In this document: positions 3,452 to 35,987 of the stretch, piece by piece
Layout of the letters: each line of letters opens with the position of its first letter
Numbering within the stretch: the first letter of the stretch is position 1
NCBI GenBank assembly: GCA_045533835.1
Contig: JAZSIM010000014.1
Span: forward strand, 20,874 to 84,873
Reading direction: 5' to 3'
DNA length: 64,000 nucleotides
DNA from: Acutalibacteraceae bacterium
Lineage (GTDB): Bacteria; Bacillota; Clostridia; Oscillospirales; Acutalibacteraceae
Program-made: the position numbers and the translations under genes
The notes under the pieces: generated by a model
Databases searched by the model: none
What the model saw: the letters and a program-made list of their open reading frames with translations, nothing else
What the model was told of the DNA's origin: nothing

Positions 3452-3480
3452 TTGATTGTGACCTGAATTTGTGGTATAAT
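3452..3480 (+). promoter_or_regulatory. SigmaA-type promoter candidate for the lipoprotein gene
   Basis: TTGATT, 17 nt, then TATAAT with a TG extension (tgtggTATAAT). Confidence 0.5.
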
Positions 3481-3515
3481 AGCTGTGATAAGCAATTATC
3501 ACGGCTATTTTTTTT
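3481..3515 (+). terminator. Rho-independent terminator after the radical SAM gene
   Basis: AGCTGTGATAA-gca-TTATCACGGCT hairpin followed by ATTTTTTTTT. Confidence 0.65.
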
Positions 3516-3528
3516 CGGAGGAAATAAA

Positions 3529-4470
3529 ATGAAAATAAAAAAAGCTATTGCTCTTTTATGTGCTTTTATAATCGTGCTTCTTTCGCTGTCCTCCTGCGGA
3601 TATGAAATAAGCATCAGGAAAAAAGGTGAGGGAAACGAGCTTACAACCACAATTGTGCTTGATCCCGATACAGGGCTTCCTGTTGACGAAGGAAATTCAG
3701 TTCAGCTTCCCGAGGTGACAACGCTTCCGTCTGCCGAAGCTACCACAAGCTCAGGTGCAGGAATTCAGATAGACAACACCTACAGACCTATGGCTATGTC
3801 CTCTCAGGATGTGCTTACCTTCTATAAGAGTGCAATGAATGACGTAAAGGTGCGCGCTCCCGGCTACACCCGTACTGAATATCAGGAGATGTCCGACGTA
3901 TCCGCGGGCGACGGCAATGTTCAGCTTATAAACAGAATCCTCAACCTTGTAGGTACGGAGCTTCTCAAGGATTCGGGCGATGAGCAGAAGACCATACAGA
4001 TTATGGCACACGATGATATTGCCGTGCGTGAAACCTTCCCCCTGTATAACAAGGATGTGGGCTGTGAGCTTAATGATATGTCAATCATAAAGTCCGCAAC
4101 CTGCTATACCGACGGACTTACCTACAAAATCATCATCACCTTTGACGATCAGCTGAATCCCGACTCTCATTACAGCTCCTTCTCTCAGATTATGACTCCC
4201 ATTGACCGCAATGCTCTTTCCGATCCCATTGAGGAATATCTCGTTGTGCTCGATTACAACAACTATAAGTTTGATATCAATTACACCAACTGCGAAATCA
4301 CCTGCATAATTGACAAGGCAACCAACCGTATGACGTCACTTAAGCATAAAATGATTATGGACGTGGAAATTGTCCTTAATCTTGACCTCATCCTTTTCCA
4401 GACAAAGAATGTCAAGGCAAAGGGCAGAATCGTCAATTTCCTGGAATACTACAGCTTTGATTGGACATAA
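3529..4470 (+). CDS. Lipoprotein of unknown function
   Basis: MKIKKAIALLCAFIIVLLSLSSCGY contains an LSSC lipobox. The RBS GGAGGAAA lies upstream. Confidence 0.7.
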   Translation: MKIKKAIALLCAFIIVLLSLSSCGYEISIRKKGEGNELTTTIVLDPDTGLPVDEGNSVQLPEVTTLPSAEATTSSGAGIQIDNTYRPMAMSSQDVLTFYKSAMNDVKVRAPGYTRTEYQEMSDVSAGDGNVQLINRILNLVGTELLKDSGDEQKTIQIMAHDDIAVRETFPLYNKDVGCELNDMSIIKSATCYTDGLTYKIIITFDDQLNPDSHYSSFSQIMTPIDRNALSDPIEEYLVVLDYNNYKFDINYTNCEITCIIDKATNRMTSLKHKMIMDVEIVLNLDLILFQTKNVKAKGRIVNFLEYYSFDWT

Positions 4471-4509
4471 GTCATAATTCACGGAATTATGAAGTGATAT
4501 TTTTTGCTT
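4463..4509 (+). repeat. 47-nt direct repeat, copy 1 (first hairpin plus one GTGATAT box)
   Basis: GGACATAAGTCATAATTCACGGAATTATGAAGTGATATTTTTTGCTT is identical to 4636..4682. It includes the last codons and the TAA stop of the lipoprotein gene. Confidence 0.9.
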
Positions 4510-4536
4510 GTAGGGGAGGGCGTCCTCGACCTCCCG
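4509..4536 (+). repeat. TTGTAGGGG hairpin module, copy 1
   Basis: TTGTAGGGGAGGGCGTCCTCGACCTCCCG. The related copy at 13935..13963 reads TTGTAGGGGATGGCGTCCCCGACATCCCG. Confidence 0.8.
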
Positions 4537-4568
4537 CATTGTACAGAAAAACAAAAAATATGCAAATT

Positions 4569-4610
4569 CCCGTGGGGGACAAAAATGTACCTCCACGGGA
4601 TATTTTTTTT
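4569..4610 (+). terminator. Rho-independent terminator
   Basis: CCCGTGGGGG...CCTCCACGGG stem followed by ATATTTTTTTT. Confidence 0.6.
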
Positions 4611-4635
4611 CTTATAATTTTATTGCATTCAGACG

Positions 4636-4776
4636 GGACATAAGTCATAATTCACGGAATTATGAAGTGATATTTTTTGCTTTGCAAAAAGTGATATTGC
4701 TTCGCAGTGATATTCATTCCTTCGGAATGAGTGATATATTTTCCTTCGGAAAATGTTTCGGAAGGCTTTCGCCTTT
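4636..4776 (+). repeat. GTGATAT-box / mini-hairpin array, plus-strand copy
   Basis: GTGATAT occurs at 4667, 4691, 4707 and 4731. The boxes are separated by short stem-loops (TCATAATTC/GAATTATGA, TTTTTGC/GCAAAAA, TGC/GCA, TCATTCC/GGAATGA, ATTTTCC/GGAAAAT, GAAGGC/GCCTTT). Confidence 0.85.
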
Positions 4777-4801
4777 TCCGCTTACGCTCTATAAAACAAT
4801 C

Positions 4802-4848
4802 AGGGTATCAGCCAAAATTTTATATATGGCTGATACCCTTAGTTTTTT
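4802..4848. terminator. Hairpin terminator between convergent units
   Basis: AGGGTATCAGCC-14 nt-GGCTGATACCCT followed by TAGTTTTTT on the plus strand. It lies just 3' of the minus-strand gene ending at 4866. Confidence 0.5.
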
Positions 4849-4865
4849 CAGAAGTTTGTTGGTTT

Positions 4866-13934: not shown

Positions 13935-13963
13935 TTGTAGGGGATGGCGTCCCCGACATCCCG
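13935..13963 (+). repeat. TTGTAGGGG hairpin module, copy 2
   Basis: TTGTAGGGGATGGCGTCCCCGACATCCCG. The stem is GGGATG/CATCCC here versus GGGAGG/CCTCCC in copy 1. Confidence 0.8.
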
Positions 13964-13973
13964 AAAAACAAAA

Positions 13974-14009
13974 GTGCAGAAGTTTTTACGCTTCTGCACT
14001 TAATTTTTT
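13974..14009 (+). terminator. Rho-independent terminator after GH38
   Basis: GTGCAGAAG-8 nt-CTTCTGCAC followed by TTAATTTTTT. Confidence 0.65.
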
Positions 14010-14019: not shown

Positions 14020-14158
14020 GACCGCAAGGTCCCGAAACATTTGCCGAAAGGCAAATATATCACTCATTCCGCAGGAATGAATATCACTTCCCGAAGGGAA
14101 ATATCACTTTTTGCGAAGCAAAAAATATCACTTCATAATTTAGCTCGCTAAATTATGA
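14020..14158 (-). repeat. GTGATAT-box / mini-hairpin array, minus-strand copy
   Basis: ATATCAC occurs on the plus strand at 14057, 14081, 14101 and 14125. The hairpins sit at the same relative positions as in 4636..4776. The array starts directly after the TAA of the aminopeptidase gene. Confidence 0.85.
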
Positions 14159-15385
14159 TTACTTCGCCCAGGTGCCGTTTTCGAAAATCTTAGTGGCCTT
14201 TCCGTCCTTGTAGCCTGTAATTTCCATATCGTCTGCACCTATCATAAAGTCAACGTGAATCATACTGTCGTTGATGCCGAGAGCTCTGCATTCCTCGTTA
14301 GTCTTTTCAAGGTGACCGTCGATGGTGTCGTTATAGCCGGCACCGAGTGCTATATGACAGCTTGCGTTTTCATCGAAAAGAGTTTCGTAGAATAAAATTC
14401 CGCTTTCGCTTATGGGACTGTTCTTGGGGATGAGTGCAAGCTCTCCGAGCATTGAGGCATTTTCATCCATTGTAATCATCTTTGTAAGAAGTGAATTGCC
14501 CTTTTCGGCATTCCATTCAACAGCCTTGCCGTCCTTGAAATTAATCCAGAAGTTCTCTATAAGCTGACCCTCATAGGAAAGAGGCATGGTGGAAACAACC
14601 TTGCCCTCTGCCTTACCTGCAATGGGGGAGGTGAATACCTCCTCTGTGGGCATATTTGGATTGAAAACAACTCCCTGCTTTGTCTTCTCGGCTCCTCCGC
14701 ACCAATGTCCCTGGGGGATAAGCCATGCCTTGAAGTCCGTGCCGTTCCCGCTCTTGTAATGAAGATAGTCGAATTTATAGGAATTGAGCCATTCACACTT
14801 CTCTCTGAGGGTCTTGTTGTGCTCCTCCCATTCTGCCACGGGGTCATTATCCTCGGTAACGTGCACGGTCCTGAGAATTGCATCCCATAATTTATTATAT
14901 GCCTGATATTTTGTAAGAGAGGGGAACACCTTCTTTGCCCATTCGTAGGAGGGTACGGCGGCAATTGTCCACTGATGGCGGTTTTCAATAGCATCTCTGT
15001 AGGGCTTAATAATGGGATAGCGTGCAATTCTTGCCTTCTGCATCTTTTCCTGATTAACACCCTTAAGTCCGTCGGGATCCTCGCTGATAATGTAAATACG
15101 GCAGGGAAGCTCCTCGGTCATTAATTTAAGCTTTTCCTCCTCCCACTTTTCAACCTTGGAAAGAGATTTTAAGCTTCTGTGGCGGTAGTCAAGCTTTGTT
15201 ATGGGCTGATGGTCCCACTCAAGCATAACCTTGCTTGCTCCTGCTTTATAGCATTCATCAACAAGAATCGTCACGAATTCATACTGATCAACGCTTGCAT
15301 AGAGCTTTACGGGCTGTCCCTTCTGAATATTTGCACCCGTTCTTGCAATAAGACGGGCGTATTTTCTCTGTATTGATTTTTTCAT
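14159..15385 (-). CDS. Aminopeptidase, peptidase family M29 (AmpS/PepS-like)
   Basis: MKKSIQRKYARLIARTGANIQKGQPVKLYASVDQYEFVTILVDECYKAGA... plus a C-terminal HIALG/DFMIG pattern. Confidence 0.85.
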   Translation of the reverse strand: MKKSIQRKYARLIARTGANIQKGQPVKLYASVDQYEFVTILVDECYKAGASKVMLEWDHQPITKLDYRHRSLKSLSKVEKWEEEKLKLMTEELPCRIYIISEDPDGLKGVNQEKMQKARIARYPIIKPYRDAIENRHQWTIAAVPSYEWAKKVFPSLTKYQAYNKLWDAILRTVHVTEDNDPVAEWEEHNKTLREKCEWLNSYKFDYLHYKSGNGTDFKAWLIPQGHWCGGAEKTKQGVVFNPNMPTEEVFTSPIAGKAEGKVVSTMPLSYEGQLIENFWINFKDGKAVEWNAEKGNSLLTKMITMDENASMLGELALIPKNSPISESGILFYETLFDENASCHIALGAGYNDTIDGHLEKTNEECRALGINDSMIHVDFMIGADDMEITGYKDGKATKIFENGTWAK

Positions 15386-26833: not shown

Positions 26834-28177
26834 TTAGCCGACACTTTCTTCGTCCGTTTCTGCGGACTGATATTTTTTTGAAAGAGCAAGAATTTCCTTG
26901 TAAAGCTCCTCGGTATAGCCGGAGAATTCATCCTTTGAAAGCGCCTTTACTCTTCCGAGAAGCTCATTTTCTCTTTCGGGTACGTACACGGGAAGCCCGT
27001 TTTCCTTTTTATAGCGTGCAATATCTTCCGATACCGCCATTCTTTCACAGAAAAGACGCACGATTTCCTTGTCTATTGCATCAATTTTCTCTCTTGATGC
27101 CTCAAGGGAAACGCTTTTTCCGTCAAGCAGCATATCAAGCACCGCCAGCGCTGCCGATGACTCAATTACGGGTACGGCTCTCGGTACAATACACGGGTCA
27201 TGTCTTCCTTTTACCGTGTATTTGATGTTTTCCTTTGTTTCAAGGTTTACGGTATCCTGCTCCTTCCCTATGGAGGGAGTGGGCTTCAGGGCACACCTGA
27301 AAACCAGGGGCATACCGTTTGTCATTCCGCCGAGAATACCGCCGCAGTTGTTGGTGTATGTTTTTACTGTATCACCGTCAAAATAAAAGCTGTCATTATT
27401 TTCAGAACCGAGAAGCTCTGCACACCTGAAGCCGTTTCCGAATTCAATGGCCTTTACCCCGGGTACGGAGAATACAGCGGATGAAATTCTGCCCTCGGCA
27501 CCTGCAAAAAGATGCTCGCCAAGACCGACGGAAAGCCCCGTTACGACACATTCAATAACACCGCCTACGGAATCAAGCTGTTCCTTAGCCTTTTTTATGA
27601 CAGCCTTCATTTCTTCCCCTGCTGTTTCGTTAATTACGGGGAAGCCGTCAGCAATCCCTTCGTTGCAGTCCGCGGAGAATGGCTTGTCCTTAACACCGCC
27701 GACCGAATATATATGAGCCTTGATTTCAATGCCCTTTTCCCTTAAATACTGAATAGCAAGCGCGCCTGCAACGCAGGTAAGAGCGGTAAGCCTGCCCGAA
27801 AAATGTCCTCCGCCTCTCAGGTCAACAGAGCTTCCGTATTTTACAATTGCAGGGAAATCCGCGTGTGAGGGACGGGGAATTATACCTGCATCGCCGTAGT
27901 CCCCCGAGTGCTGATTCGTGTTATAAATAACGGCTGTTATCCTGCCGCCCGTGGTAGCTCCGTTTTCAACGCCTGACAAAAAAACGGGCTTGTCCGCTTC
28001 CTTTCTTTTGGTGGACCATTCATTCTGTCCCGGGGCGCGTCTTTTCATAAATGCAGAAAGAAGCTCCTCATCAATACGAAGTCCTGCGGGGAAGCCCTCA
28101 AGTGTCATTGTCAGCCTTTCGCCGTGGCTTTCGCCGTCAATATAAAGCTTTATGTTGTTTCCGTAGGGAAAGCTCAT
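26834..28177 (-). CDS. aroC: Chorismate synthase fused to a C-terminal AroQ-class chorismate mutase domain
   Basis: The AroC body runs MSFPYGNNIKLYIDGESHGERL...GRHDPCIVPRAVPV. It is followed by REKIDAIDKEIVRLFCERMAVSEDIARYKKENGLPVYVPERENELL (CM_2-like). Confidence 0.88.
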   Translation of the reverse strand: MSFPYGNNIKLYIDGESHGERLTMTLEGFPAGLRIDEELLSAFMKRRAPGQNEWSTKRKEADKPVFLSGVENGATTGGRITAVIYNTNQHSGDYGDAGIIPRPSHADFPAIVKYGSSVDLRGGGHFSGRLTALTCVAGALAIQYLREKGIEIKAHIYSVGGVKDKPFSADCNEGIADGFPVINETAGEEMKAVIKKAKEQLDSVGGVIECVVTGLSVGLGEHLFAGAEGRISSAVFSVPGVKAIEFGNGFRCAELLGSENNDSFYFDGDTVKTYTNNCGGILGGMTNGMPLVFRCALKPTPSIGKEQDTVNLETKENIKYTVKGRHDPCIVPRAVPVIESSAALAVLDMLLDGKSVSLEASREKIDAIDKEIVRLFCERMAVSEDIARYKKENGLPVYVPERENELLGRVKALSKDEFSGYTEELYKEILALSKKYQSAETDEESVG

Positions 28178-28181
28178 CTTT

Positions 28182-29405
28182 TCACCTTATTTCATCCCAG
28201 AAAAGGGGATAGGATTTTTTTACAGCCCCGGCACCGCTTATCGTTACCGTACCGCTTGTTGAAAATGCAGCCGCAGCCGCACTCATTGCAATTCTGTGGT
28301 CGTTGCAGGAATCAACCTCACCGCCCGTAAGGGGGGAGCCTTCAATAATTATACTGTCATCACGGACGGCAATTTTTCCGCCGAGGTTCTTTATCATATT
28401 ATAAACCGCTTCAATTCTGTCGCTTTCCTTGAAGCGAAGCCTTCCGCAGTTTATAATTTCCGTCTGACCTTTGGCATTTGCCGCAACAACCGACAAAACG
28501 GGTACAAGGTCGGGTATGTCCGCAGCATCAACCGTAATTCCGTGAAGCACGGAGGGGTAAGCAGTTATGCCGTTTTCTGTTATTTCAATATCTGCACCGA
28601 AACCGCGAAGCACGGTAAGGATTTTTTTATCCCCCTGAACGGAGTCTGTTTCAAGCCCCGTAAGTGTGATTGCTTTTCTGCCGATAGCACCTGCAGAAAG
28701 GAAAAATGCGGCATTTGACCAATCTCCACCGGCTTTTATTTCTCCCGGAGAGATAAGGGGAACAGTTTTTGGCACCGTGATTATGTTTTCCGAAAAGCTG
28801 ACATAGCAGCCGAATTTTTTCAGTGCATCAATTGTCATTTCAATATAAGGCAGGCTTTCGGTCTTACCGGTTATTTCAATTCTGCCGCCCGTTTTTGTCA
28901 GCATAAATATAAGGCCCGAAATAAACTGCGAGGATACGTTGCCTGCTATTGAAAAATCGGTTTTTTTGCATCTGCCCGAAACCTTTATACGGCTGTCCTC
29001 TTTTTCTATGGTGACTCCTGCCCCTTCAAGCTCCTCCTTTAAGGGGGAAAGAGGTCTGTCGCCCAGGCGCCCCTCTGTAACAAATACTGCAGATTTGCCG
29101 TAAAGAGATGAAAGGGGCAGTAAAAAGCGGAGCGTTGAGCCCGATTCCTTAGGATGCAGCACGGGATTTTCAGGTACGTCCGCGATGGGCTTTACCGTAA
29201 AGATACCGTCTGAAAAGGAAATTTCCGCACCGAGGGACTTAAGACAGTTAACCGTTGCTTCAATATCCTCATTTGTTCCGTCGCAGTGTACTTTTGTCAT
29301 TTTGTCGGAAAGAGCCGCACATATAAGAAGACGGTGCACCTCTGATTTTGAAGCAGGTATTTTTATGATGTCCTCCGTTTTCGGAGAAAAAAGCGTTTTT
29401 ACCAT
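28182..29405 (-). CDS. aroA: 3-phosphoshikimate 1-carboxyvinyltransferase (EPSP synthase)
   Basis: KIPASKSEVHRLLICAAL..., LRFKESDR. The start MVKTLF at 29405 lies 1 nt after the aroB stop. Confidence 0.9.
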   Translation of the reverse strand: MVKTLFSPKTEDIIKIPASKSEVHRLLICAALSDKMTKVHCDGTNEDIEATVNCLKSLGAEISFSDGIFTVKPIADVPENPVLHPKESGSTLRFLLPLSSLYGKSAVFVTEGRLGDRPLSPLKEELEGAGVTIEKEDSRIKVSGRCKKTDFSIAGNVSSQFISGLIFMLTKTGGRIEITGKTESLPYIEMTIDALKKFGCYVSFSENIITVPKTVPLISPGEIKAGGDWSNAAFFLSAGAIGRKAITLTGLETDSVQGDKKILTVLRGFGADIEITENGITAYPSVLHGITVDAADIPDLVPVLSVVAANAKGQTEIINCGRLRFKESDRIEAVYNMIKNLGGKIAVRDDSIIIEGSPLTGGEVDSCNDHRIAMSAAAAAFSTSGTVTISGAGAVKKSYPLFWDEIR

Positions 29406-29406
29406 A

Positions 29407-30453
29407 TCAGAAGCCCTCCGCAAGAAAACCGGCAAGCTCTGCTACGGGAGTCGGCTTAAGTATACAGCTGCCCGCATACCGGGGGATTACAAGAGTGATT
29501 TCTTCACCCCGGCGTTTTTTGTCGGAAAGGGCAGCTCGTGCTAGCTCCCCGGGAGTAAAAACGGGTACTGACGGCAGGGAAAACTTATCAAGAAGAGAAA
29601 GAAGAGCTCCGAGAGCCGCTTCTTCGCAAAGCCCCTTTTTTATTGCCGCCCTTGTCATAATAACCATACCTATTGCCACCGCGGAGCCGTGGGAAACCGT
29701 ATATTCCGAAAGCACCTCAATGCCGTGGGCAGGTGTATGTCCGAAATTCAGAAGCTGTCTTATTCCGTTATCTCTTTCGTCAACGGCAACAATATCACGC
29801 TTTGCCGTTACGGAGATTTCAATAATTTCATTTATATCATAATCCCCCGAAAGCAGCTCTAAAAGCACGGGGGTGTTTATCATTCCGTATTTTATGATCT
29901 CAGCCATACCGTCATTGAAGATTTTTTCAGGCAGCGTAGACAGCGTGTCGGGGTCAATAATCACAAGTGACGGCTGATAAAAGGCTCCTGCAAGATTTTT
30001 ACCGTTTTTAAGATCAACGGCAGTTTTTCCGCCGACTGAGGAATCTGTCATGGAGAGAAGGGTAGTCGGGATGTTTACATATTTTATTCCTCTTAAAAAC
30101 GTAGCGGCGGCAAAGCCCGTAAGATCGCCCGTCACACCGCCCCCGAGGGCTATGAGAATATCTGAACGGGTTACGTGCTTTTCTGCAAGGAATTCCCATA
30201 AGGACACGAGCGTATCTGTGCATTTTCTGTCTTCGCCTGCTTCAAAAACAAAGGAAATGACGCTGAAGCCCTCCTTTTTCAGCGTAGCTTCAAGCACATT
30301 GCCGTAAAGCGGGAATACGTTTGAATCTGAAACGATTACCGCAGTATTTCCCTTTGAAATATCTCTTATGAGCCTTCCCGATTCTCCGAGAAGACCGTTG
30401 CCTATCAGGACATCATAACCTGCAGATGCCTCAATGTGTACCTTTTTCATCAT
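29407..30453 (-). CDS. aroB: 3-dehydroquinate synthase
   Basis: ALGGGVTGDLTGFAAATFLRGIKYVNIPTTLLSMTDSSVGGKTAV. Confidence 0.9.
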   Translation of the reverse strand: MMKKVHIEASAGYDVLIGNGLLGESGRLIRDISKGNTAVIVSDSNVFPLYGNVLEATLKKEGFSVISFVFEAGEDRKCTDTLVSLWEFLAEKHVTRSDILIALGGGVTGDLTGFAAATFLRGIKYVNIPTTLLSMTDSSVGGKTAVDLKNGKNLAGAFYQPSLVIIDPDTLSTLPEKIFNDGMAEIIKYGMINTPVLLELLSGDYDINEIIEISVTAKRDIVAVDERDNGIRQLLNFGHTPAHGIEVLSEYTVSHGSAVAIGMVIMTRAAIKKGLCEEAALGALLSLLDKFSLPSVPVFTPGELARAALSDKKRRGEEITLVIPRYAGSCILKPTPVAELAGFLAEGF

Positions 30454-31302
30454 TTATCCCTTCTTCTGTGAGCTTCCGTCTATCTGCTCCTTCATAAGCC
30501 TTCCGTCCCTGAGAAGCTTACAAAGCGTATCGCTGTCATTATTTTCGAGGGCGCTTTTGTATTCGCCCAGAGAGCTTATTATGAAGTTAAGCTCTCTTAT
30601 AAGATTATCGGAGTTTTCAGTAAAAAGCTCTGTCCACATATTTTCGTTGAGCCACGCAACTCTTGTCATATCCTTGTATGAGCCTGCCGAGAAGCCTCCG
30701 TGATTTTTTGCCGTTTCACTTTTTATATATGCGTTTGAAACGATGTGAGCAAGCTGTGAAGTAAAGGCTATCATTTCATCGTGCTTTTCGGCGGTTGTCA
30801 CGGAGATACTTCCGAAGCCCATAGGGGAGATTATATTTTTTATATTTTCAAGCAGTCCTATATCATCAAACACCGGGGGAACAATTACCATAGGTGCGCC
30901 CCTGAAGAGATCCTTTCTCGAATACTTTATGCCCGAAAACTGCGTGCCTGCCATAGGATGGGCACCCACAAAGTTAAAGCCGTATTCCTCTGCCAGGCTG
31001 AAGCCCGTTTTGCAGATTTCTCTTTTTGTACCGCAAAGGTCAAGCACAAAGGCATCCTTTTTTATGAACGGTGCATTTTCCTTCAGATATTCCTCTGCCG
31101 CTTTCGGGTACAGGGCAATAAATATCACGTCACAGGAGCTTACGGCTTCTGAAGTCAGCTCCCCGTCAATTATTCCCGACAGCATTGCATATCCGAGCGT
31201 GCCCTTATCCGTATCCCTGCCGAGCACCCTGCAGTCGGCAGCCTTATATGCACGGGCAGCCGAGCCGCCTATAAGTCCTAAGCCTACAACACCGACAGTC
31301 AT
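30454..31302 (-). CDS. tyrA: Prephenate dehydrogenase
   Basis: MTVGVVGLGLIGGSAARAYK...GAHPMAG. The start shares one base with the upstream stop (TAATG). Confidence 0.85.
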   Translation of the reverse strand: MTVGVVGLGLIGGSAARAYKAADCRVLGRDTDKGTLGYAMLSGIIDGELTSEAVSSCDVIFIALYPKAAEEYLKENAPFIKKDAFVLDLCGTKREICKTGFSLAEEYGFNFVGAHPMAGTQFSGIKYSRKDLFRGAPMVIVPPVFDDIGLLENIKNIISPMGFGSISVTTAEKHDEMIAFTSQLAHIVSNAYIKSETAKNHGGFSAGSYKDMTRVAWLNENMWTELFTENSDNLIRELNFIISSLGEYKSALENNDSDTLCKLLRDGRLMKEQIDGSSQKKG

Positions 31303-32315
31303 TATAATGCCTCCCTTAATGCGCTTCTTACAACGCTTACGGATTTCATCATATCTGAAAACTGCTCGGGTGTCAGTGACTGAGCTCCGTCACACAGAGC
31401 GTGTATGGGGTCAGAATGCACCTCTGTCATAAGTCCGTCCGCGCCTGCTGCAACAGCTGCCAATGCCATGCTTTTTACATATTTTGAGGAGCCCGTTGCG
31501 TGGGAGGGGTCAATAATAACGGGTAAGTGCGTCAGCTCCTTAAGAACGGGAACGGCAGATAAGTCCAGACAGTTTCTGGTGTATTGGCTGTCAAAGGTCC
31601 TTATTCCTCTTTCGCAGAGCATTACGTTTTCATTTCCGCCAGCCATAATGTATTCTGCAGACATAAGCCATTCTTTTATTGTACTCGAAAGTCCGCGTTT
31701 TAGCAAGATAGGTTTGTCGGTTTTTCCCAGTTCTTTTAACAGTTCAAAGTTCTGCATATTCCGTGCGCCTACCTGAATCACGTCAACATCCTGGAAAAGG
31801 GGAAGGTGGTGTGCATCCATAATTTCCGTAACTATCGGCAGTCCCGTTTCCTTTTTTGCCTTCAGAAGAAGCTCTATACCCTCGGCTTTCAGCCCCTGAA
31901 AATCATAAGGAGAGGTTCTGGGCTTGAAGGCTCCGCCTCTGAGCATATTACAGCCCGCCGTTTTTACGGCTCTTGCAATCCCCGTCAGCTGATCCTCGGA
32001 TTCAACGGAGCAGGGGCCTGCAATAACTGCAAAATTACCGCCGCCCACCATTACACCGCTGCAGTTGATTATACTGTCATCGGGATGAAATTTTCTGTTT
32101 GCGCTTTTGAAGGGGTCGGAAACGCGTCTTACCGCCTCAACAATGCTGAGGCTTCCGATAAGGTCTGCATCAAGCCTTGTGGTGTCACCTATAAGACCGA
32201 CAACCGTCTGGAATTCGCCCTTTGAAATGTGAACGTCAAGTCCGAAGCCTCTGAGCCATTCCGTAAAATTGCCGAGCTGCTCCTGTGTTGTTCCCTGTTT
32301 TAATACTGCAATCAT
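31302..32315 (-). CDS. aroF: 3-deoxy-7-phosphoheptulonate (DAHP) synthase, type I-beta, with an N-terminal ferredoxin-like regulatory domain
   Basis: MIAVLKQGTTQEQLGNFTEWLRGFGLDVHISKGEFQTVVGLIGD is followed by a KDO8PS/DAHPS-like barrel (IAGPCSVES, LRGGAFKPRTSPY). The RBS GGTGAGGT lies upstream. Confidence 0.9.
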   Translation of the reverse strand: MIAVLKQGTTQEQLGNFTEWLRGFGLDVHISKGEFQTVVGLIGDTTRLDADLIGSLSIVEAVRRVSDPFKSANRKFHPDDSIINCSGVMVGGGNFAVIAGPCSVESEDQLTGIARAVKTAGCNMLRGGAFKPRTSPYDFQGLKAEGIELLLKAKKETGLPIVTEIMDAHHLPLFQDVDVIQVGARNMQNFELLKELGKTDKPILLKRGLSSTIKEWLMSAEYIMAGGNENVMLCERGIRTFDSQYTRNCLDLSAVPVLKELTHLPVIIDPSHATGSSKYVKSMALAAVAAGADGLMTEVHSDPIHALCDGAQSLTPEQFSDMMKSVSVVRSALREAL

Positions 32316-32346
32316 TTTTATTACCTCACCTTTAAGATATTCTGCG

Positions 32347-32382
32347 AAAAAAATTAAATGCACCCGATTTTCACCGGGTGCA
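32347..32382 (-). terminator. Leader (attenuator) terminator upstream of aroF
   Basis: The minus-strand RNA reads UGCACCCG-GUGAAAAU-CGGGUGCA followed by UUUAAUUUUUUU. It ends about 30 nt before the aroF ATG. Confidence 0.6.
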
Positions 32383-32429
32383 CTGAAATAACCTTTATAC
32401 GTTACTTTGATTTGCAGACAGCGAAAATC

Positions 32430-32489
32430 TTACCTTTTTTCTTCTGAAAAAAAGTAATAATAATATGCTGCTGCAAAAAGCTTGGTCAT
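32430..32489 (-). CDS. Leader peptide MTKLFAAAYYYYFFSEEKR (19 aa), attenuation-type
   Basis: ATG at 32489 and TAA at 32432..32430. GGAAGGA lies 9 nt upstream. It contains four consecutive Tyr codons and two Phe codons. It sits between the promoter and the leader terminator of the aro/tyrA operon. Confidence 0.55.
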   Translation of the reverse strand: MTKLFAAAYYYYFFSEEKR

Positions 32490-32522
32490 AAAACTTAATC
32501 CTTCCGTTTGCTTGTTGAGGTC

Positions 32523-32551
32523 AGTTTAACACTTTATATCATTAAAGTCAA
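32523..32551 (-). promoter_or_regulatory. SigmaA-type promoter candidate of the aro operon
   Basis: On the minus strand: TTGACT, 17 nt, then TAAACT. Confidence 0.55.
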
Positions 32552-32655
32552 TACTTTTTTTCAGTTTAAGAAAAAATATCAAAAATGTAATCAATGTTGA
32601 TATTTTTTTTGCAGATGTTAAAATAAACATACAATAAAGAAAGGCGGTGTTTTTT

Positions 32656-32901
32656 ATGTATGAAATAATAAATACTCTTTTTTGTGCAATACCGATTTTA
32701 GTCATTGTAGTATTCGTTGTTCTTCTGTTTGTTTACAGAAAGAGAAAGAAGGAAGCACCGGAAGCGGCTTCCTGTAAGAATTCAGCAGAGCTTAATTCAC
32801 TGAAAACCGCAATAAAGGTGTTCGGTATACTTTCCGCTGTGTTTGCGGGTGTTGTCGTAATCCTCGGTGTGTTGTTCTGTATGTTTGTGGCATATATGTG
32901 A
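32656..32901 (+). CDS. Small two-TM membrane protein, hypothetical
   Basis: MYEIINTLFCAIPILVIVVFVVLLFVYRKRKK...VFGILSAVFAGVVVILGVLFCMFVAYM. The start could also be the GTG at 32647. Confidence 0.45.
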   Translation: MYEIINTLFCAIPILVIVVFVVLLFVYRKRKKEAPEAASCKNSAELNSLKTAIKVFGILSAVFAGVVVILGVLFCMFVAYM

Positions 32902-32911
32902 GGGAAAGATA

Positions 32912-33052
32912 ATGAGAGAGAAATATTTCAGATTCCTTCTGATTCTTGTTCTTGTGCTTTGCATTACCGTTACCGTAGTACACGTTGCCTACGACGTATA
33001 TGCTTACGGCCATTGCTCAATAATACAGTTTATTGCAAAGGAGCTGTGGTAG
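32912..33052 (+). CDS. Small single-TM protein, hypothetical (46 aa)
   Basis: MREKYFRFLLILVLVLCITVTVVHVAY... follows GAGGGAAAG. The stop lies 1 nt before the next ATG. Confidence 0.35.
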   Translation: MREKYFRFLLILVLVLCITVTVVHVAYDVYAYGHCSIIQFIAKELW

Positions 33053-33053
33053 A

Positions 33054-34040
33054 ATGAAGCTTTTAAAACAGCTGTCGGTGCTTCTCGGTATTATTCTGCT
33101 TTTTACTCTGTTCAACGTGGCTGTATACTTTTCGGTTACTGTACGTCTTTCAAATAATTTCAGCGATGCAACTCAGGCGAAAATGATTGACGTCGGTGAA
33201 TTTCTTCCTTTTAGGGAGGAGTCCGACCTTGCACGTACGGAAACGGACTTTACTCTTGAAGGGGAGCTTCCCGTGCTTGATGGTGCGGCGGCGCTTGTTC
33301 CGGTATATGCCTCTGTGATTAATGCGGTTTATCCCGAGTCCTCTGTAACGTATATCGGCGGTGAGTTCTGTGATGATAATTTTTACGGTGAGAATTTTGC
33401 TCCGGACAGTAAAATGCAGTATAAGAATACCGTAAGGGGATATACCGCTGTTGTTGACGGAGATACGGATATTCTTTTCTGTGCCGCTCCTTCTGCGGAG
33501 CAGAAAAAGTATGCGGAGGATAAGGGTGTTGAACTTGAATATGTCCCCGTAGGACTTGAAGCCTTCGTTTTCTTTGTCAATAAGAATAATCCCGTTGAGA
33601 ATCTTACTGCAGAGCAGATAAGGGATATTTACGGCGGTACTTATAAAAACTGGAAGGATGTTGGCGGTGCCAACCGTGTAATCAATCCCGTAACACGTAT
33701 GGAGGGAAGCGGAAGCCAGTCCGCAATGAATTCCTTTATGGGAGACAGAAAAATTGCCCTGAAATCTCCGCTGTCAATAACCGGTGCTTCAATAGGCTTT
33801 TCCTTCAGATACTATATGGATGGTATCGTAGATAACGGTGAGGTTAAAATGCTGTCATTGAACGGCGTTTATCCGTCAGCGGAAAATATCAGAAACGGTA
33901 CTTATCCCGTAATTGCAGAATTTTATGCAATTTACCGTAAGGATAACGAAAACGAAAACATTAAAAAGCTCATAGACTGGATTCTTTCAGATGAGGGACA
34001 GTCCCTTATTGAGGAAAGCGGCTATGTGAGAATTAAATAA
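33054..34040 (+). CDS. PstS-family (PBP_like_2) substrate-binding domain protein with an N-terminal TM anchor
   Basis: NLTAEQIRDIYGGTYKNWKDVGGANRVINPVTRMEGSGSQSAMNSF is a PstS-like signature. Confidence 0.7.
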   Translation: MKLLKQLSVLLGIILLFTLFNVAVYFSVTVRLSNNFSDATQAKMIDVGEFLPFREESDLARTETDFTLEGELPVLDGAAALVPVYASVINAVYPESSVTYIGGEFCDDNFYGENFAPDSKMQYKNTVRGYTAVVDGDTDILFCAAPSAEQKKYAEDKGVELEYVPVGLEAFVFFVNKNNPVENLTAEQIRDIYGGTYKNWKDVGGANRVINPVTRMEGSGSQSAMNSFMGDRKIALKSPLSITGASIGFSFRYYMDGIVDNGEVKMLSLNGVYPSAENIRNGTYPVIAEFYAIYRKDNENENIKKLIDWILSDEGQSLIEESGYVRIK

Positions 34041-34045
34041 AAAGA

Positions 34046-34075
34046 TACCGCAGTCTGTGAAAAGAGGCTGCGGTA
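34046..34075. terminator. Hairpin between convergent genes
   Basis: TACCGCAG-14 nt-CTGCGGTA, with only weak T runs. Confidence 0.4.
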
Positions 34076-34080
34076 AAGTT

Positions 34081-35643
34081 TTATTCGTTATTATTTACTC
34101 CTACAATTGAGAGAAGCTCTGTTTTTGTTTTATCCTCATCGTAGGTGTTGCAGCCGACGCGGAGAATATCTCCCTCCTGCAGGTAGCCGCTGTGTCTTAC
34201 ACCGCCCTCGGGGTGGGTAACGGACAGCACGAAAAGCTTGTGAGGCCAGAAGATGTCCTTGAGCTCCTTGCCCTCTGCAAAGGAATCCTTGTTTACCGTA
34301 ACATTAAATTCAATATATTTACTCTTTTTGCCCTCATGCTCCTTATGTATGCGTCTTTCAAGGGCAAATTCGTTTATTGATTCGGAATGAGAAAGCACGG
34401 CAATCATATAGGCTACGCCTGCTGCAATAATAATGGCGGAAAGGTTTGTTGAACAGCCCAGGGCCTCAAGTGCAAAAACAACTGCCGTGAAGGGGATATT
34501 CATAATACCCGACATTCCTGCAACAAGTCCCAGTACCACAACAAGGGTGTAATAATATTCGGGAATAAGCCCCGTAAGAATCAGCACGTTTGAAAGCACG
34601 GATGCCGTAAGTGCCGATACTGCGAGAGTAGGAAGAAACAGTCCGCCCGTAAGCCCTGCCGAATTTGCGGAAAGTGTAAGAATCGTACGGAGAATTATCG
34701 TTACTATAATTATGAGCGTAAGAGAATGGTGGGTAAAAAGCTCCTCCGTCAGGTGGTGTCCCGTTGAAATGAAGGTATAGGAATACATACCTGCGGCAAG
34801 CGTCATAATTAGGATTAAAAATATCTTTATCCCGCTGTCCGTCTTTTTAAGTGTTGTGTTGAAGAGCTTGTTTATTCTTCTGAAGGTATGCAGGAAGACA
34901 ACAGAGAAAATGCCTAATGTGATGCCCGTCAGCAGGGGAATCCACATTTCGCTTACTGAAAGCGGGGGGATTGAAATGTCGTGGAAAATTTCGGGAGAAA
35001 TACCGAAAAGGGGACAGAGTAGCTGAGTTACAACCCTGCAGGCTGCTACGGATACAATGGTGATGATAATTATTACAGGGGAGAGCCTTCTGTGCATTTC
35101 CTCAATTATGAAAATAATGCCCGTCATAGGAGCGCCCGTTGCCGCCGCAAAGCCGGCGGAAGCACCGCCCGTTATGCTGTAACGGCTCCAAACCTCTCCC
35201 TTTTTACCGAGTGCTTTTGTTACGGATTCACCAAGAGAAGCGCCCATAAGCACGCAGGGACCTTCATTACCGAGGGGTACGCCGAGAAGAAAATTGAGAA
35301 GTGAAAGAGTAAAGGTGCCCACAAGGGAGCGAAGCCACTTGAAGGAGAAAATGCCTCCCACAAGCCCCATTGTGTCGCTGATTCCTCCGCCCTTTACGGA
35401 GGGGTATTTTTTATAAATGAAGCGGAGTGCAAGGGCAATAAGCGCCGGCACGGGAACGGCAGCAGCAATAAATACGGGCTTTTCCCTAAGAAAATTATAA
35501 ATGCTCTCCGAAAAGGAAATGGCATAGAAGGCAAGGAAGCGGTACAGGGTAACGACAGCTCCCGTCAATGCTCCTGTTGAAATACCGATTACAATAACCG
35601 GCACCATCAGCCTTAAGGTATGTAATTGTTTCAGTCTGTTCAT
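34081..35643 (-). CDS. ClC-family voltage-gated chloride channel with a C-terminal TrkA-C-like domain
   Basis: GNEGPCVLMGASLG and GAPMTGIIFIIEE selectivity-filter motifs are present. It has about 10-12 TM helices. Confidence 0.88.
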   Translation of the reverse strand: MNRLKQLHTLRLMVPVIVIGISTGALTGAVVTLYRFLAFYAISFSESIYNFLREKPVFIAAAVPVPALIALALRFIYKKYPSVKGGGISDTMGLVGGIFSFKWLRSLVGTFTLSLLNFLLGVPLGNEGPCVLMGASLGESVTKALGKKGEVWSRYSITGGASAGFAAATGAPMTGIIFIIEEMHRRLSPVIIIITIVSVAACRVVTQLLCPLFGISPEIFHDISIPPLSVSEMWIPLLTGITLGIFSVVFLHTFRRINKLFNTTLKKTDSGIKIFLILIMTLAAGMYSYTFISTGHHLTEELFTHHSLTLIIIVTIILRTILTLSANSAGLTGGLFLPTLAVSALTASVLSNVLILTGLIPEYYYTLVVVLGLVAGMSGIMNIPFTAVVFALEALGCSTNLSAIIIAAGVAYMIAVLSHSESINEFALERRIHKEHEGKKSKYIEFNVTVNKDSFAEGKELKDIFWPHKLFVLSVTHPEGGVRHSGYLQEGDILRVGCNTYDEDKTKTELLSIVGVNNNE

Positions 35644-35695
35644 AAGGATTCCTCCTTTATGCGAGTGAAAAGTGAAGAGTGAATAGGTAATAAGT

Positions 35696-35730
35696 AAAAA
35701 AACGACAGGTATTAAACCTGTCGTTTTTTT
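35696..35730 (-). terminator. Terminator after the tRNA-Ser pair
   Basis: AAAAAAACGACAGG-5 nt-CCTGTCGTTTTTTT, symmetric. Confidence 0.6.
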
Positions 35731-35823
35731 GGCGGAGCAGGAGAGACTCGAACTCTCGCGCCGGGGTTTAGCCGACCTACGCCCTTAGCAGGGGCGCCTC
35801 GTCACCAACTTGAGTACTGCTCC
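35730..35823 (-). tRNA. tRNA-Ser (anticodon GCU)
   Basis: The reverse complement is GGAGCAGTACTCAAGTTGGTGACGAGGCGCCCCTGCTAAGGGCG...GTTCGAGTCTCTCCTGCTCCGCCA. It shows a 7-bp acceptor stem, a CUGCUAA anticodon loop, a long variable arm, GTTCGAGTC and an encoded CCA. Confidence 0.85.
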
Positions 35824-35853
35824 GTATGGTAAACGTGATTATATTAAAAAAAA

Positions 35854-35944
35854 TGGCGGAGAGAGTGGGATTCGAACCCACGGTACCCGTAAGAGTACGA
35901 CGGTTTTCAAGACCGTTCCGTTATGACCGCTTCGGTATCTCTCC
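35854..35944 (-). tRNA. tRNA-Ser (anticodon UGA)
   Basis: The reverse complement is GGAGAGATACCGAAGCGGTCATAACGGAACGGTCTTGAAAACCGTCG...GGTTCGAATCCCACTCTCTCCGCCA. It shows a CUUGAAA anticodon loop, a long variable arm and an encoded CCA. Confidence 0.85.
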
Positions 35945-35958
35945 AATTAGCATTTGAT

Positions 35959-35987
35959 ATATTACCACAATCCGTTTTCCTTGTCAA
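35959..35987 (-). promoter_or_regulatory. SigmaA-type promoter candidate of the tRNA-Ser pair
   Basis: On the minus strand: TTGACA, 17 nt, then TAATAT with a TG extension, about 15 nt upstream of the first tRNA. Confidence 0.6.

Follow-up and report, generated by a model that had tools for sequence, protein, structure and literature searches.

A Gut-1 copy behind an aminopeptidase gene

The structured element at positions 14158-14020 on the minus strand of the window (the whole 64-kb stretch of DNA analysed) is a copy of Gut-1, Rfam family RF01706. In a cmscan search its score was 56.5 bits (E = 1.6e-8), above the gathering score of 50, with the full model, 1-77, aligned to 14052..14133 on the minus strand. 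Gut-1 is a published motif whose role is unexplained (Weinberg et al. 2010, Genome Biol 11:R31, PMC2864571). It has stood in Rfam since 2010 as an orphan, modelled over 77 nt and recorded from human-gut metagenomes alone, with no host, context or function. Our searches of open-access PubMed Central and bioRxiv returned no paper on Gut-1 or RF01706 other than that of 2010. The structured element proposed in the initial annotation is real, although that it was already catalogued had gone unrecognised there.

Gut-1 can now be placed in genomes, those of Oscillospirales-type Clostridia and a few phages. The repeat, which is dispersed, non-autonomous and built of multiple hairpins, belongs to gut and rumen Clostridia (Oscillospirales-type MAGs) and to some of their phages, and it behaves as strain-variable. 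The relatives, from gut and rumen, are MAGs assigned to Clostridia, Oscillospiraceae and Acutalibacteraceae, and copies also occur in Akkermansia MAGs, Bacteroidaceae MAGs and phage-like contigs. Two contexts are reproducible: solo arrays flush with stop codons in mRNAs, and a paired form behind tRNA genes, upstream of an Avd-like protein family. The orphan motif thereby yields testable hypotheses on mRNA 3′-end stability, a protein partner and a mechanism of mobility.

The window holds a second copy (copy 1) on the opposite strand, which alone scores 33.5 bits for RF01706, under the gathering score. It is 92% identical to the M29-site copy (copy 2) over 127 aligned nt, and the two have 41-nt blocks in common, at 95-98% identity. 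Sister copies elsewhere all pass: 56.5 bits twice in L241, 52.4 in L245, 71 in L103 (an Acutalibacteraceae MAG) and 58 in the phage-like contig L365. The top scores, 72-80 bits, belong to the ‘short arm’ of the larger paired element, which follows tRNA genes and precedes PF05635 genes; the window's two copies are gene-less solo derivatives. GTGATAT occurs 22 times in the window versus 5.8 +/- 2.3 times in shuffles, and the 206-nt RNA has a folding energy of -72.5 kcal/mol (z = -6.5). With the shared 41-nt blocks, this excess and the fold z-score show that the element is not a product of chance.

Anatomy of the two copies

Copy 2 consists of six hairpins (H1-H6) and four GTGATAT boxes, and its surroundings are laid out as follows.

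14159..15385, minus strand: M29 aminopeptidase gene, from the ORF list (Pfam PF02073, E = 1e-157)
14161-14159, minus strand: M29 stop codon, TAA
14133..14158, minus strand: H1, AT-rich 5′ hairpin TCATAATTTAG-cgag-CTAAATTATGA, from the first base past TAA onward
14131-14125, minus strand: box 1, GTGATAT
14124-14108, minus strand: H2, TTTTTGC-ttc-GCAAAAA
14107-14101, minus strand: box 2, GTGATAT
14100-14088, minus strand: H3, TTCCC-ttc-GGGAA
14087-14081, minus strand: box 3, GTGATAT
14080-14064, minus strand: H4, TCATTCC-tgc-GGAATGA
14063-14057, minus strand: box 4, GTGATAT
14056-14039, minus strand: H5, ATTTGCC-tttc-GGCAAAT, opening the 3′ module (14020..14056)
14038-14032, minus strand: linker GTTTCGG, in the 3′ module
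14031-14020, minus strand: H6, GACC-ttgc-GGTC, in the 3′ module, then GGCATTATAC at 14019-14010
13964..14001, minus strand: intrinsic terminator from the terminator scan, a bidirectional hairpin with T-runs on both strands that would end the M29 transcription unit; a homologous one is present in L241 and L242
13937..13962, plus strand: REP-like GTAG and GC-rich palindrome GTAGGGGATGGCGTCCCCGACATCCC, a separate repeat family adjoining the element

The sequence bears out the reported spacing of the boxes (24, 20 and 24 nt) and the abutment on the M29 stop, with no spacer before H1. Two hairpin readings are corrected here: the H1 loop, given as gag, is CGAG on an 11-bp stem, and hairpin 6 of copy 1, given as GAAGGC-tttc-GCCTTT, is AAGGC-tttc-GCCTT. 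The other stem differences that had been listed between the copies are present in copy 1, and hairpin pairing is kept between the two while the sequence differs. Copy 1, L103 and the M29 orthologues all retain the base of H1, TCATAATT/AATTATGA, under an upper stem that is variable and still paired. The tail of copy 2 (H5, GTTTCGG, H6) is the same in L103 and L365. Like the Rfam family, copy 2 has at least three covarying hairpins joined by GUGAAAU or GUGAUAU and has relatives of gut and rumen origin, whereas its conserved parts extend beyond the Rfam model to H1, which abuts the stop codon, and to H5, GTTTCGG and H6, and it would lie inside an mRNA 3′ UTR. We rejected the element as an intrinsic terminator: H1-H6 lack U tracts, the scan flags only H3 and H4, and weakly, and the real terminator is at 14001-13964.

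Copy 1 lies in a rearranged locus (4463-4848).

4463..4509, plus strand: partial copy 1′, an exact 47-nt duplicate of 4636-4682
4510..4635, plus strand: segment between the 47-nt repeats, with REP-like GTAGGGGAGGGCGTCCTCGACCTCCC and the native terminator
4645..4797, plus strand: copy 1, full, with box spacings of 24/16/24
4645-4665, plus strand: H1 of copy 1
4667, 4691, 4707 and 4731, plus strand: starts of the copy 1 boxes
4738-4754, plus strand: H5 of copy 1
4755-4761, plus strand: GTTTCGG of copy 1
4762-4775, plus strand: H6 of copy 1 (AAGGC-tttc-GCCTT)
4776-4797, plus strand: tail of copy 1
4802-4848: second terminator, 3′ of copy 1

The 47-nt duplicate comprises the last 5 nt of a CDS, TAA, G, H1, box 1 and half of H2, and partial copy 1′ stands directly 3′ of the real stop of ORF 3469-4470. 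REP-like GTAGGGGAGGGCGTCCTCGACCTCCC (4510-4535) begins exactly where the H2 loop breaks, and the native terminator of the locus (4564-4610) is homologous to the sole intergenic feature of L367. Neither simple transposition nor tandem duplication fits the A-B-A-C structure at 4463-4682. Copy 1, like copy 2, is placed between a stop codon and a terminator.

Placement relative to genes and terminators

Copy 2, flanked by the M29 and GH38 genes, occupies the whole M29 3′ UTR and ends 18 nt ahead of the intrinsic terminator. From this end point, and from the start of H1 on the first base past TAA, we infer that it is transcribed as the tail of the M29 mRNA. No promoter-like site was found on the minus strand at copy 2, which, with the lack of a spacer and the terminator on the 3′ side, argues for a 3′ UTR. 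The two window copies lie on opposite strands within one GC-skew domain, so that orientation follows the gene and not replication.

The initial annotation had proposed that such arrays follow stop codons in the sense orientation. This stands as a polar tendency in a subset of solo arrays, but not as a universal rule. Of 48 arrays, 12 have a co-oriented stop no more than 32 nt from box 1, and none of 43 has a convergent stop that near its last box; family-wide, however, by a crude ORF call, 33 arrays have the same orientation as the upstream ORF and 42 the opposite. About two thirds of the arrays are inverted pairs, often after tRNA genes, situated after a terminator-like hairpin and before a promoter, sites at which little transcription is expected.

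Some copies are intercistronic. Each of two consecutive intercistronic gaps in L365 is filled by a sense array that starts at the stop codon. In L245, the element separates the M29 gene from a DAHP synthase gene with no terminator, and in L044 it is flanked by co-oriented genes for two ABC-transporter ATP-binding proteins, the stop of the upstream one being the TGA of box 1.

Dispersal and strain polymorphism

Copy 1 is absent at its site in four related genomes (L366-L369), including L366, whose flanking protein is 99% identical. At the site orthologous to that of copy 2, a strain at 96% (L241) has two tandem copies, L242 a decayed one, and L243 and L244 none. Presence and absence between strains with 99% identical flanking proteins argue that a given copy is dispensable. 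Near-identical copies occur in different contexts in L058, L118 and L103. Duplicate copies in L058, L118 and L380/L383 start ..AAAAAAGC and end ..ATTTCACT, and they have neither terminal inverted repeats nor flanking direct repeats; since inverted termini and target-site duplications are lacking in these duplicates, we rejected the element as a MITE. The left junction (marked here by a slash) is usually ..CCA/G and also TAA/, and rearrangement breakpoints fall inside hairpin loops at window position 4509/4510 and in L395. We found no transposase or HUH gene that recurs beside the arrays, PF05635 being the only recurrent neighbour, and no tnpA or RAYT gene among the immediate neighbours of any copy.

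We rejected a single 9.5-kb transposon with the inverted window copies as its ends, since the copies enclose housekeeping genes and vary independently among strains. The genes between them encode TIM-barrel AP endonuclease-like, SpoIIP, Gpr, ThiF and GH38 proteins, and are syntenic in relatives without copy 1. A search of a plasmid collection gave zero matches. In viral contigs, 3 of 120 pattern matches were true arrays (L281, L306, L365), so the family is not chiefly viral. A metagenome scan for window-type copies (TCATAATT..AATTATGA..RTGAWAT) returned 120 loci, all 120 of them chance matches.

Conservation of pairing and the question of the strand

Conservation of pairing is already established for the Gut-1 family, for which the published alignment has 18 covarying pairs (Weinberg et al. 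2010, PMC2864571). The covariation suggested from two copies holds with more of them compared: in 279 distinct inter-box hairpins, the outer four pairs are Watson-Crick in 81.6% of cases versus 27.6 +/- 1.4% in partner shuffles, as outer-justified pair counts made by script, registers having slipped in the MAFFT alignment for a formal covariance model. All four pair types are present at every stem position in this set. The units of one array are wholly different from each other except for the heptamer. In L245, an 86%-identical relative, the orthologous M29 site has the same architecture with different but paired stems, and three double substitutions relative to the window fall within H2 alone.

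The initial annotation had taken covariation as an argument that secondary structure is selected. Pairing is indeed kept amid sequence turnover, but covariation alone is no proof of selection on an RNA fold, because the stems have no excess of G-U over A-C: G-T pairs make up 3.1% and A-C pairs 4.1% in the 279 hairpins (9 versus 15 in a separate count), and neither count has an asymmetry that would point to the functional strand. A selected RNA fold seldom lacks such an excess, and DNA palindromes kept perfect by template switching would be expected to give the same covariation pattern. The loops, on the other hand, are strand-asymmetric, with a bias to TTC, TGC and TTAC... closed by C-G, so that it is the complement of the mRNA strand that carries the canonically stable GNA/GNRA loops. 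In practical terms, the ‘new’ structured element is a member of a catalogued family, and covariation in perfect palindromes is not by itself proof of RNA function.

The paired form and PF05635 genes

A complete paired form of Gut-1 lies directly upstream of a gene for a PF05635 (Avd-like four-helix-bundle) protein in 27 of 27 loci that were selected via the protein, and the linkage is also found in 9 loci reached via the DNA pattern. It holds down to ~50% protein identity, despite turnover of the hairpin sequences, and the last box of the paired element abuts a -35-like hexamer of the PF05635 gene's promoter. The 64-kb window has no PF05635 gene. Avd is an accessory protein of diversity-generating retroelements (DGRs) and binds nucleic acid. 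PF05635 has been described as resembling it (PMC10053308), and the family found beside paired Gut-1 is equally an orphan. We rejected a DGR, since the PF05635 genes beside paired elements are orphans whose neighbours are unrelated, and near them neither a reverse transcriptase nor a template or variable repeat was seen.

It is conceivable, although we consider it unlikely, that Gut-1 arrays are the cis-acting nucleic-acid partner of this large clostridial Avd-like PF05635 subfamily, in an undescribed cassette that sheds solo arrays. Such a cassette would run from a terminator-like hairpin through a sense 3-box arm, an antisense 4-box arm and a promoter to the PF05635 gene, and would settle at 3′ boundaries of transcription units, namely tRNA CCA ends and stop codons. 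The window's two gene-less arrays would then be solo arrays shed by it, and the conserved heptamers putative binding sites of the PF05635 protein.

Proposed role and alternatives

The reading that we favour, with a confidence falling somewhat short of even, is that copy 2 is a solo Gut-1 repeat, co-transcribed in the M29 3′ UTR. By analogy with REP/BIME and pneumococcal BOX elements, it would most likely serve as a cis-acting 3′-end or intercistronic RNA module. Its RNA would form six short independent hairpins with the heptamer GUGAUAU at four joints; in the Rfam model, each heptamer contributes its outer GU and AU to the closure of the adjacent stems, with a 3-nt single-stranded GAU left between them. 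The hairpins would need only to pair, and the heptamer, the C-G closing pair and the T-N-C loops would be the conserved and presumably recognised parts. Such an array would block 3′ exonucleases, and its GAW linkers could serve as a platform for an endonuclease or a binding protein. The terminating ribosome may also sense the array, because H1 begins at the stop codon. Copies would be gained and lost via duplication, insertion and recombination at the DNA level, probably starting from a larger cassette. Several observations tell against this reading: the family-wide orientation counts (33 same, 42 opposite), the prevalence of inverted pairs at sites where transcription should be low, the missing G-U excess, stable loops on the strand opposite the mRNA, and the apparent dispensability of a given copy.

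An alternative, to which we give distinctly less credence, is a selfish repeat acting purely as DNA, whose single-stranded DNA hairpins are mobilised in trans by an HUH-type (IS200/IS605- or RAYT-like) enzyme and which is tolerated past stops and terminators. Transcription in the M29 3′ UTR would then be incidental, and the ‘compensatory’ changes would be template-switch corrections of quasi-palindromes and not products of selection on RNA. The presence/absence and copy-number polymorphism among near-identical strains would be expected of such a repeat, as would identical copies in varied contexts that, like IS200/IS605-type elements, lack terminal inverted repeats and target duplications, with a left junction that is usually ..CCA/G. 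The stems are almost perfectly Watson-Crick without G-U bias, on one strand the loops yield C(GNA)G or C(GNNA)G DNA hairpins of great stability, breakpoints lie within hairpin loops (4509/4510 in the window; L395), and the spread to Akkermansia MAGs, Bacteroidaceae MAGs and phage-like contigs fits as well. However, the sole recurrent neighbour of the arrays is PF05635 and not a transposase or HUH gene. The copy in L245 is intact in architecture over 14% protein divergence, whereas a dead insertion is expected to decay as in L242, unless refreshed by conversion, and the polarity of stop abutment tracks transcription rather than replication.

The linkage to PF05635 also raises the rather doubtful prospect that the heptamer-hairpin units are multivalent RNA or DNA sites for an oligomeric protein, PF05635 being the best candidate, with solo copies that titrate or recruit it in trans. 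The paired element upstream of PF05635 in all 27 protein-selected and 9 DNA-pattern loci, the persistence of that linkage to ~50% protein identity despite hairpin turnover, the last box adjoining the -35-like hexamer of the promoter and the resemblance of PF05635 to Avd (PMC10053308) are consistent with it. Yet the linkage may just reflect travel in one cassette, the 64-kb window is without a PF05635 gene, and 3-5 boxes with spacers of 9-20 nt are a poor fit to a fixed oligomer. Rfam (type ‘Gene; sRNA’) and Weinberg et al. 2010 (PMC2864571) class Gut-1 as probably a non-coding RNA without a cis-regulatory role, and known sponge RNAs likewise have repeated single-stranded motifs set between hairpins. 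A free-standing sRNA gene with its own promoter, acting in trans, for example as a CsrB-like sponge for an RNA-binding protein, nevertheless seems very improbable to us: at copy 2, H1 directly follows the stop codon and leaves no space for a promoter, the minus strand has no promoter-like site, copy number is strain-variable and some copies are intercistronic.

Comparison with known systems

Several other explanations of the array were rejected. A CRISPR array does not fit a repeat of 7 nt whose ‘spacers’ are palindromes of 9-20 nt with no cas genes nearby, nor does a type III toxin-antitoxin RNA (ToxI-like) fit units that differ save for the heptamer, beside M29 and GH38 genes. The boxes contain GTG/ATG and TGA, but mini-ORFs or translational coupling are at odds with spacings of 24/20/24 and 24/16/24, which break the frame. 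To our knowledge, K-turn, box C/D, CsrA, TRAP and HutP sites do not match the array in motif or geometry.

Pneumococcal BOX, bcr1 of B. cereus and mycobacterial MIRU elements resemble Gut-1 in being modular intergenic repeats with a variable number of internal units, which are co-transcribed with flanking genes as highly structured RNA; MIRUs moreover lie in operon gaps in sense orientation, overlapping stop and start codons. None of the three, however, is related to Gut-1 in sequence. Terminal inverted modules or target duplications mark BOX and bcr1 but were not found for Gut-1, and the near-identical units of MIRU are translated in a frame that the Gut-1 spacings of 24/20/24 would break. 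The IS200/IS605-derived palindrome-associated elements (PATE), which HUH enzymes move, share with Gut-1 the absence of terminal inverted repeats and target duplications, hairpins near the ends, strand polarity and a recurrent short left-flank sequence (in Gut-1, ..CCA/G and TAA/), but have one hairpin per end, where Gut-1 has arrays without an adjacent tnpA or RAYT gene. PF05635 genes, annotated ‘23S rRNA intervening-sequence protein’, include a large clostridial subfamily with paired Gut-1 constantly upstream. Like rRNA intervening-sequence ORFs, these genes lie beside stable-RNA genes (here tRNAs) and have structured flanks, but they are not within an rRNA gene.

The REP/BIME elements of enterobacteria and pseudomonads are likewise clustered, strain-polymorphic extragenic palindromes with a short motif 5′ of each hairpin, found in 3′ UTRs and intercistronic gaps. 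They stabilise upstream mRNA and, near a stop codon, affect translation. REP units, however, consist of GTAG and one GC-rich imperfect palindrome in alternating orientation, while Gut-1 units consist of GTGAWAT and short stems of any sequence in direct order, with no RAYT nearby. The mismatch in unit motif and order led us to reject Gut-1 as a REP/BIME element; it is the separate GTAGGGGA... repeats that form a REP-like family. Its sites number only two in the window, and each coexists beside one of the two Gut-1 copies.

Identity and anatomy of the element

The element behind the M29 aminopeptidase gene (copy 2) is a solo, strain-variable member of the Gut-1 RNA family, placed precisely between the stop codon and a terminator, and its hairpins have been kept as hairpins. 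Its parts (H1 to H6 denote the hairpins), and the other full copy in the window, are as follows.

Features of the two Gut-1 copies in the window
14159-15385, minus strand: M29 aminopeptidase ORF (PF02073, E = 1e-157), stop codon TAA at 14161-14159
14158-14133, minus strand: H1, a 26-nt AT-rich hairpin that begins at the base right after the M29 TAA
14131, 14107, 14087 and 14063, minus strand: four exact GTGATAT boxes with spacings of 24, 20 and 24, and perfect hairpins H2-H4 between them
ending at 14020, minus strand: H5, then the linker GTTTCGG, then H6
14001-13964: bidirectional intrinsic terminator past copy 2
4645-4797, plus strand: copy 1, with its parts in the same order as copy 2 and spacings of 24/16/24

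The initial annotation had described the array from sequence, and its order of parts, its 24/20/24 spacings and the stem differences between the copies are all there; two hairpin details needed correction, as the loop of H1 is CGAG and copy 1 has AAGGC/GCCTT as its H6 stem. The window contains 22 GTGATAT heptamers where 5.8 +/- 2.3 would be expected, the two copies have 41-nt blocks in common at 95-98% identity, and the fold of the 206-nt RNA has z = -6.5. Copy 2 matches the Rfam family RF01706 (Gut-1 RNA) with 56.5 bits, above the curated threshold of 50, and copy 1 with 33.5 bits; no further Gut-1-like sequence was found within the 64-kb window. In the Rfam structure, each heptamer lends its terminal GU and AU to the closing of the adjoining stems, leaving 3-nt GAA/GAU linkers between hairpins. 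A REP identity was rejected for want of a GTAG unit and a MITE identity for want of terminal inverted repeats or a target duplication, and the element is neither a terminator, a CRISPR array nor a type III antitoxin.

The kind is thus already known, and the window element is an additional member. Gut-1 was first described from 43 representatives, all in human-gut metagenomes, with 18 covarying pairs in the alignment; it was rated as certainly RNA and probably not cis-regulatory, and no function was proposed (Weinberg et al. 2010, PMC2864571). We found no mention of Gut-1 beyond that paper in open-access PubMed Central and bioRxiv. New here are the host genomes, the additional parts of the solo subtype, polar abutment on stop codons, gain, loss and duplication between strains, a tRNA-proximal paired form and, above all, the constant association of that form with an orphan family of Avd-like proteins.

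Covariation across the family

One genome per species was scanned for three boxes of the family-wide form GTGAWAT, which gave at least 120 loci; a hairpin filter left 97 arrays in 74 loci among the matches listed, with genes called by a crude longest-ORF heuristic. Nearly all hosts among these matches are MAGs from gut or rumen that bear the label Clostridia, Oscillospiraceae, Acutalibacteraceae, Ruminococcus or Christensenellaceae. The minority consists of a few Akkermansia/Akkermansiaceae MAGs and one Bacteroidaceae MAG (L004, L006, L014, L117; all hairpin-supported), which point either to horizontal transfer between phyla or to contaminated bins.

Across loci the boxes are constant, while the hairpin sequences are wholly different and always palindromic. 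We counted the outer four pairs of each spacer in arrays defined by their boxes only, a definition that is unbiased and leaves chance matches in. Among the matches listed, 81.6% of these pairs are Watson-Crick (279 distinct spacers), against 27.6 +/- 1.4% in 500 partner shuffles (maximum 31.7%), and every outer pair position shows all four pair types. The covariation proposed in the initial annotation is therefore borne out very strongly. Its further step, that selection acts on an RNA fold, is tempered by two other properties of the hairpins. G-T pairs are not in excess over A-C mismatches, either in the outer pairs (3.1% vs 4.1%) or inside stems (9 vs 15). Moreover, the loops are strongly strand-asymmetric (TTC 38, TGC 25, TTAC 13, TTT 12, TTGC 11, etc., among the matches listed) and a C-G pair closes 181 of the 217 hairpins listed, so that C(GNA)G and C(GNRA)G, the classic stable loops, fall on the opposite strand. 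Quasi-palindrome correction at the DNA level would likewise yield near-perfect palindromes without wobble pairs.

Solo and paired subtypes

About two thirds of the arrays listed are paired. In the paired form, a short arm of three boxes with 9-13-nt hairpins, bracketed by a ~10-bp inverted repeat (GAAATAAATCC...GGATTTATTTC or TATATTCGCC...GGCGAATATA), is followed in opposite orientation by a long arm of four boxes with 15-18-nt hairpins. The top RF01706 scores (72-80 bits) go to the short arm. This arrangement is also visible in the original seed sequences, whose alignment also has matches 240 nt apart on single contigs (PMC2864571). The window copies belong to a solo subtype with an AT-rich H1 (TCATAATT..AATTATGA), four boxes and an H5-GTTTCGG-H6 tail. 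It occurs three times in the Acutalibacteraceae MAG contig L103, and the tail is also found in the phage-like contig L365; the arrays of both contigs all exceed the Rfam threshold.

Paired elements, tRNA genes and PF05635

A tRNA gene, of many specificities, lies within 400 nt in 16 of the 74 loci listed. The order is then invariable: tRNA, terminator-like hairpin, sense short arm, antisense long arm (for example L058 94-385, L013 5223-5510 and L370 914-1347), and the left junction is usually ..CCA|G. In nine DNA-pattern loci among the matches listed (L013, L025, L028, L049, L068, L069, L097, L107, L110), a gene of ~116 aa starts 30-70 nt past the long arm. Its family is PF05635 ('23S rRNA intervening-sequence protein') and TIGR02436 (four-helix-bundle protein), which has been likened to the accessory protein Avd of DGRs (PMC10053308). 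We found no reverse transcriptase near the PF05635 genes of paired loci, and a DGR identity was rejected on this ground. The 64-kb window has no PF05635 gene.

As an independent test starting from the protein, we took every available contig for three PF05635 homologues and kept the loci with enough upstream sequence; homologues form more than 8000 clusters, many on 0.5-1.5-kb contigs. All 27 such loci (within L370-L399) have a complete paired element upstream in constant register. The cassette reads ..CCA|G-AAAAAAGC[hairpin]GCTTTTTT-CAACGAAATAAATCC..-(GTGAAAT-hairpin)x3-..GGATTTATTTC in its 5′ half and (ATTTCAC-hairpin)x3-ATTTCAC-TTATAGACA-17 nt-TATAAT/TACAAT-AAGGAG-ATG in its 3′ half, with a sigma-70-like promoter between the last ATTTCAC box and the ribosome-binding site of the PF05635 gene. 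Since its flanks are conserved and its stem is variable, the terminator-like hairpin belongs to the element. The same cassette stands behind different tRNAs (L380 vs L383; L392 vs L390), and duplicate copies show neither terminal inverted repeats nor target duplication.

In L392, L395 and L399, a second paired element with ATGAAAT/ATTTCAT boxes lies ~130-480 nt past the stop of the four-helix-bundle gene. The hairpin before it is homologous to the one preceding the cassette, which is thus flanked by direct repeats of a ~38-nt hairpin.

Stop codons and orientation

The initial annotation had also held that the element touches stop codons in the sense orientation. As a family rule this fails: by the crude gene calls, the nearest upstream ORF is co-oriented with 33 of the arrays listed and opposed to 42. 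What survives is a polar tendency of solo arrays. Among the matches listed, 48 arrays have a co-oriented open frame of 120 codons or more whose end lies no further than 400 nt upstream, and in 12 of them the stop is within 32 nt of box 1, where it directly adjoins the 5′ hairpin, falls within it, or is formed by the TGA of box 1 itself (L024, L044, L061). At the other end, 0 of 43 convergent frames stop within 32 nt (minimum 47 nt).

Two arrays fill two successive intercistronic gaps of the GC-rich IMG/VR contig L365 (3800-4400), both sense and each opening with a hairpin immediately past TAA or TAG. One has the GTTTCGGGACCTGCGGTCGGCATTATA tail of the window copy despite a very different base composition, and the small gene between them is presumably Prp-like. 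The array of L044 lies between two co-oriented ABC-transporter ATP-binding genes, putatively ecfA1/ecfA2. As one GC-skew domain contains both window copies, on opposite strands, orientation follows the neighbouring gene and not replication.

Gain and loss at orthologous sites

Like the two ends of a transposon, the window copies point towards each other, at a distance of 9.3 kb. They do not, however, bound a single transposon: the genes between them are ordinary chromosomal ones (TIM-barrel AP-endonuclease-like, SpoIIP, Gpr germination protease, ThiF, GH38 mannosidase), with unchanged order in relatives without copy 1, and the copies are independent.

At the M29 site, L241 (a strain 96% identical in the M29 protein) has two tandem copies past the stop (2543-2820; unit ~146 nt; Rfam matches at 2568 and 2714), joined at ...GGTCGGCA|TAATCATAATT... 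with the stop-codon TAA included. L245 (86%) has one copy of unchanged architecture, with stems that differ yet pair; its H2 has changed from TTTTTGC/GCAAAAA to TCATAGC/GCTATGA, three double substitutions, and the element is intercistronic, leading straight into a DAHP synthase gene. L242 (87%) has a decayed copy, and L243 and L244 (both 86%) have no array at this site, only TCATAATT...AATTATGA around ~100 nt of unrelated sequence. The tail is of the GACC type in the window and L241 and of the AAGGC type, like copy 1, in L242 and L245, a switch that suggests replacement or conversion at this site.

The copy-1 site is without Gut-1 in L366 (99%-identical flanking protein), where it contains a terminator, a REP-like doublet and nothing else, and likewise in 87%, 83% and 70% relatives; copy 1 is thus a recent gain. 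L367 has only a terminator, homologous to window 4564-4610. Single copies are gained and lost, but one site at least has retained a structurally intact copy across species.

Next to copy 1, window 4463-4682 has an A-B-A-C arrangement in which two exact direct copies of a 47-nt stretch, made up of the final 5 nt of the CDS, the TAA, H1, box 1 and one half of H2, enclose a 126-nt segment. This segment holds the native terminator of the locus, and REP-like sequence opens it at a point exactly within the H2 loop. The full copy 1, together with a second terminator, lies between TTCAGA hexamers (4628-4852). No simple insertion or duplication model fits the arrangement.

Possible roles

By analogy with REP/BIME and BOX repeats, we tentatively read copy 2 as a 3′-end or intercistronic RNA module, a reading that is possible but short of probable. 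It would be co-transcribed with the M29 gene and fold into a row of six hairpins that would hinder 3′ exonucleases, while the GAW linkers beside the hairpins would be offered to an endonuclease or binding protein. With H1 starting right at the stop codon, a terminating ribosome would have to unfold this hairpin, and the fold could be coupled to translation in this way.

A selfish repeat that works at the DNA level alone and is recognised in the form of single-stranded hairpins is, in our view, rather unlikely overall; in its favour are stems that lack G-U pairs, biased loops, polymorphism between strains and breakpoints inside hairpin loops. A multivalent platform for the PF05635 protein, compatible with the other readings, is improbable, and a free-standing sRNA very improbable: copy 2 leaves no room for a promoter and so fits it poorly.

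Other repeats and features in the window

A separate REP-like repeat (GTAG plus a GC-rich palindrome, GTAGGGGAnnGCGTCC...) is present at just two places in the window, 4510-4535 and 13937-13962 (both plus strand), each time beside a Gut-1 copy; the former starts exactly at the H2-loop break of the partial copy. The doublet at the empty site of L366 is an inverted pair of a related sequence.

GC skew is negative at 1-32 kb and positive at 32-64 kb, with the cumulative minimum at ~24-36 kb; the switch at ~28000-36000 may mark a replication origin or terminus, or a switch in gene orientation. Two long-arm tRNA genes lie at 35733-35944 (minus strand). The 78-nt tandem repeats at 41706-43393 (plus strand) are coding and belong to two paralogous genes of 254 and 302 aa, built of ~26-aa repeats (NSDGSIxWWxExEYDxNGNEIK), each with the same 34-nt terminator-like hairpin CGGGATGTGTATGCGAATACATGTCCCGTTTTTT before and after it.
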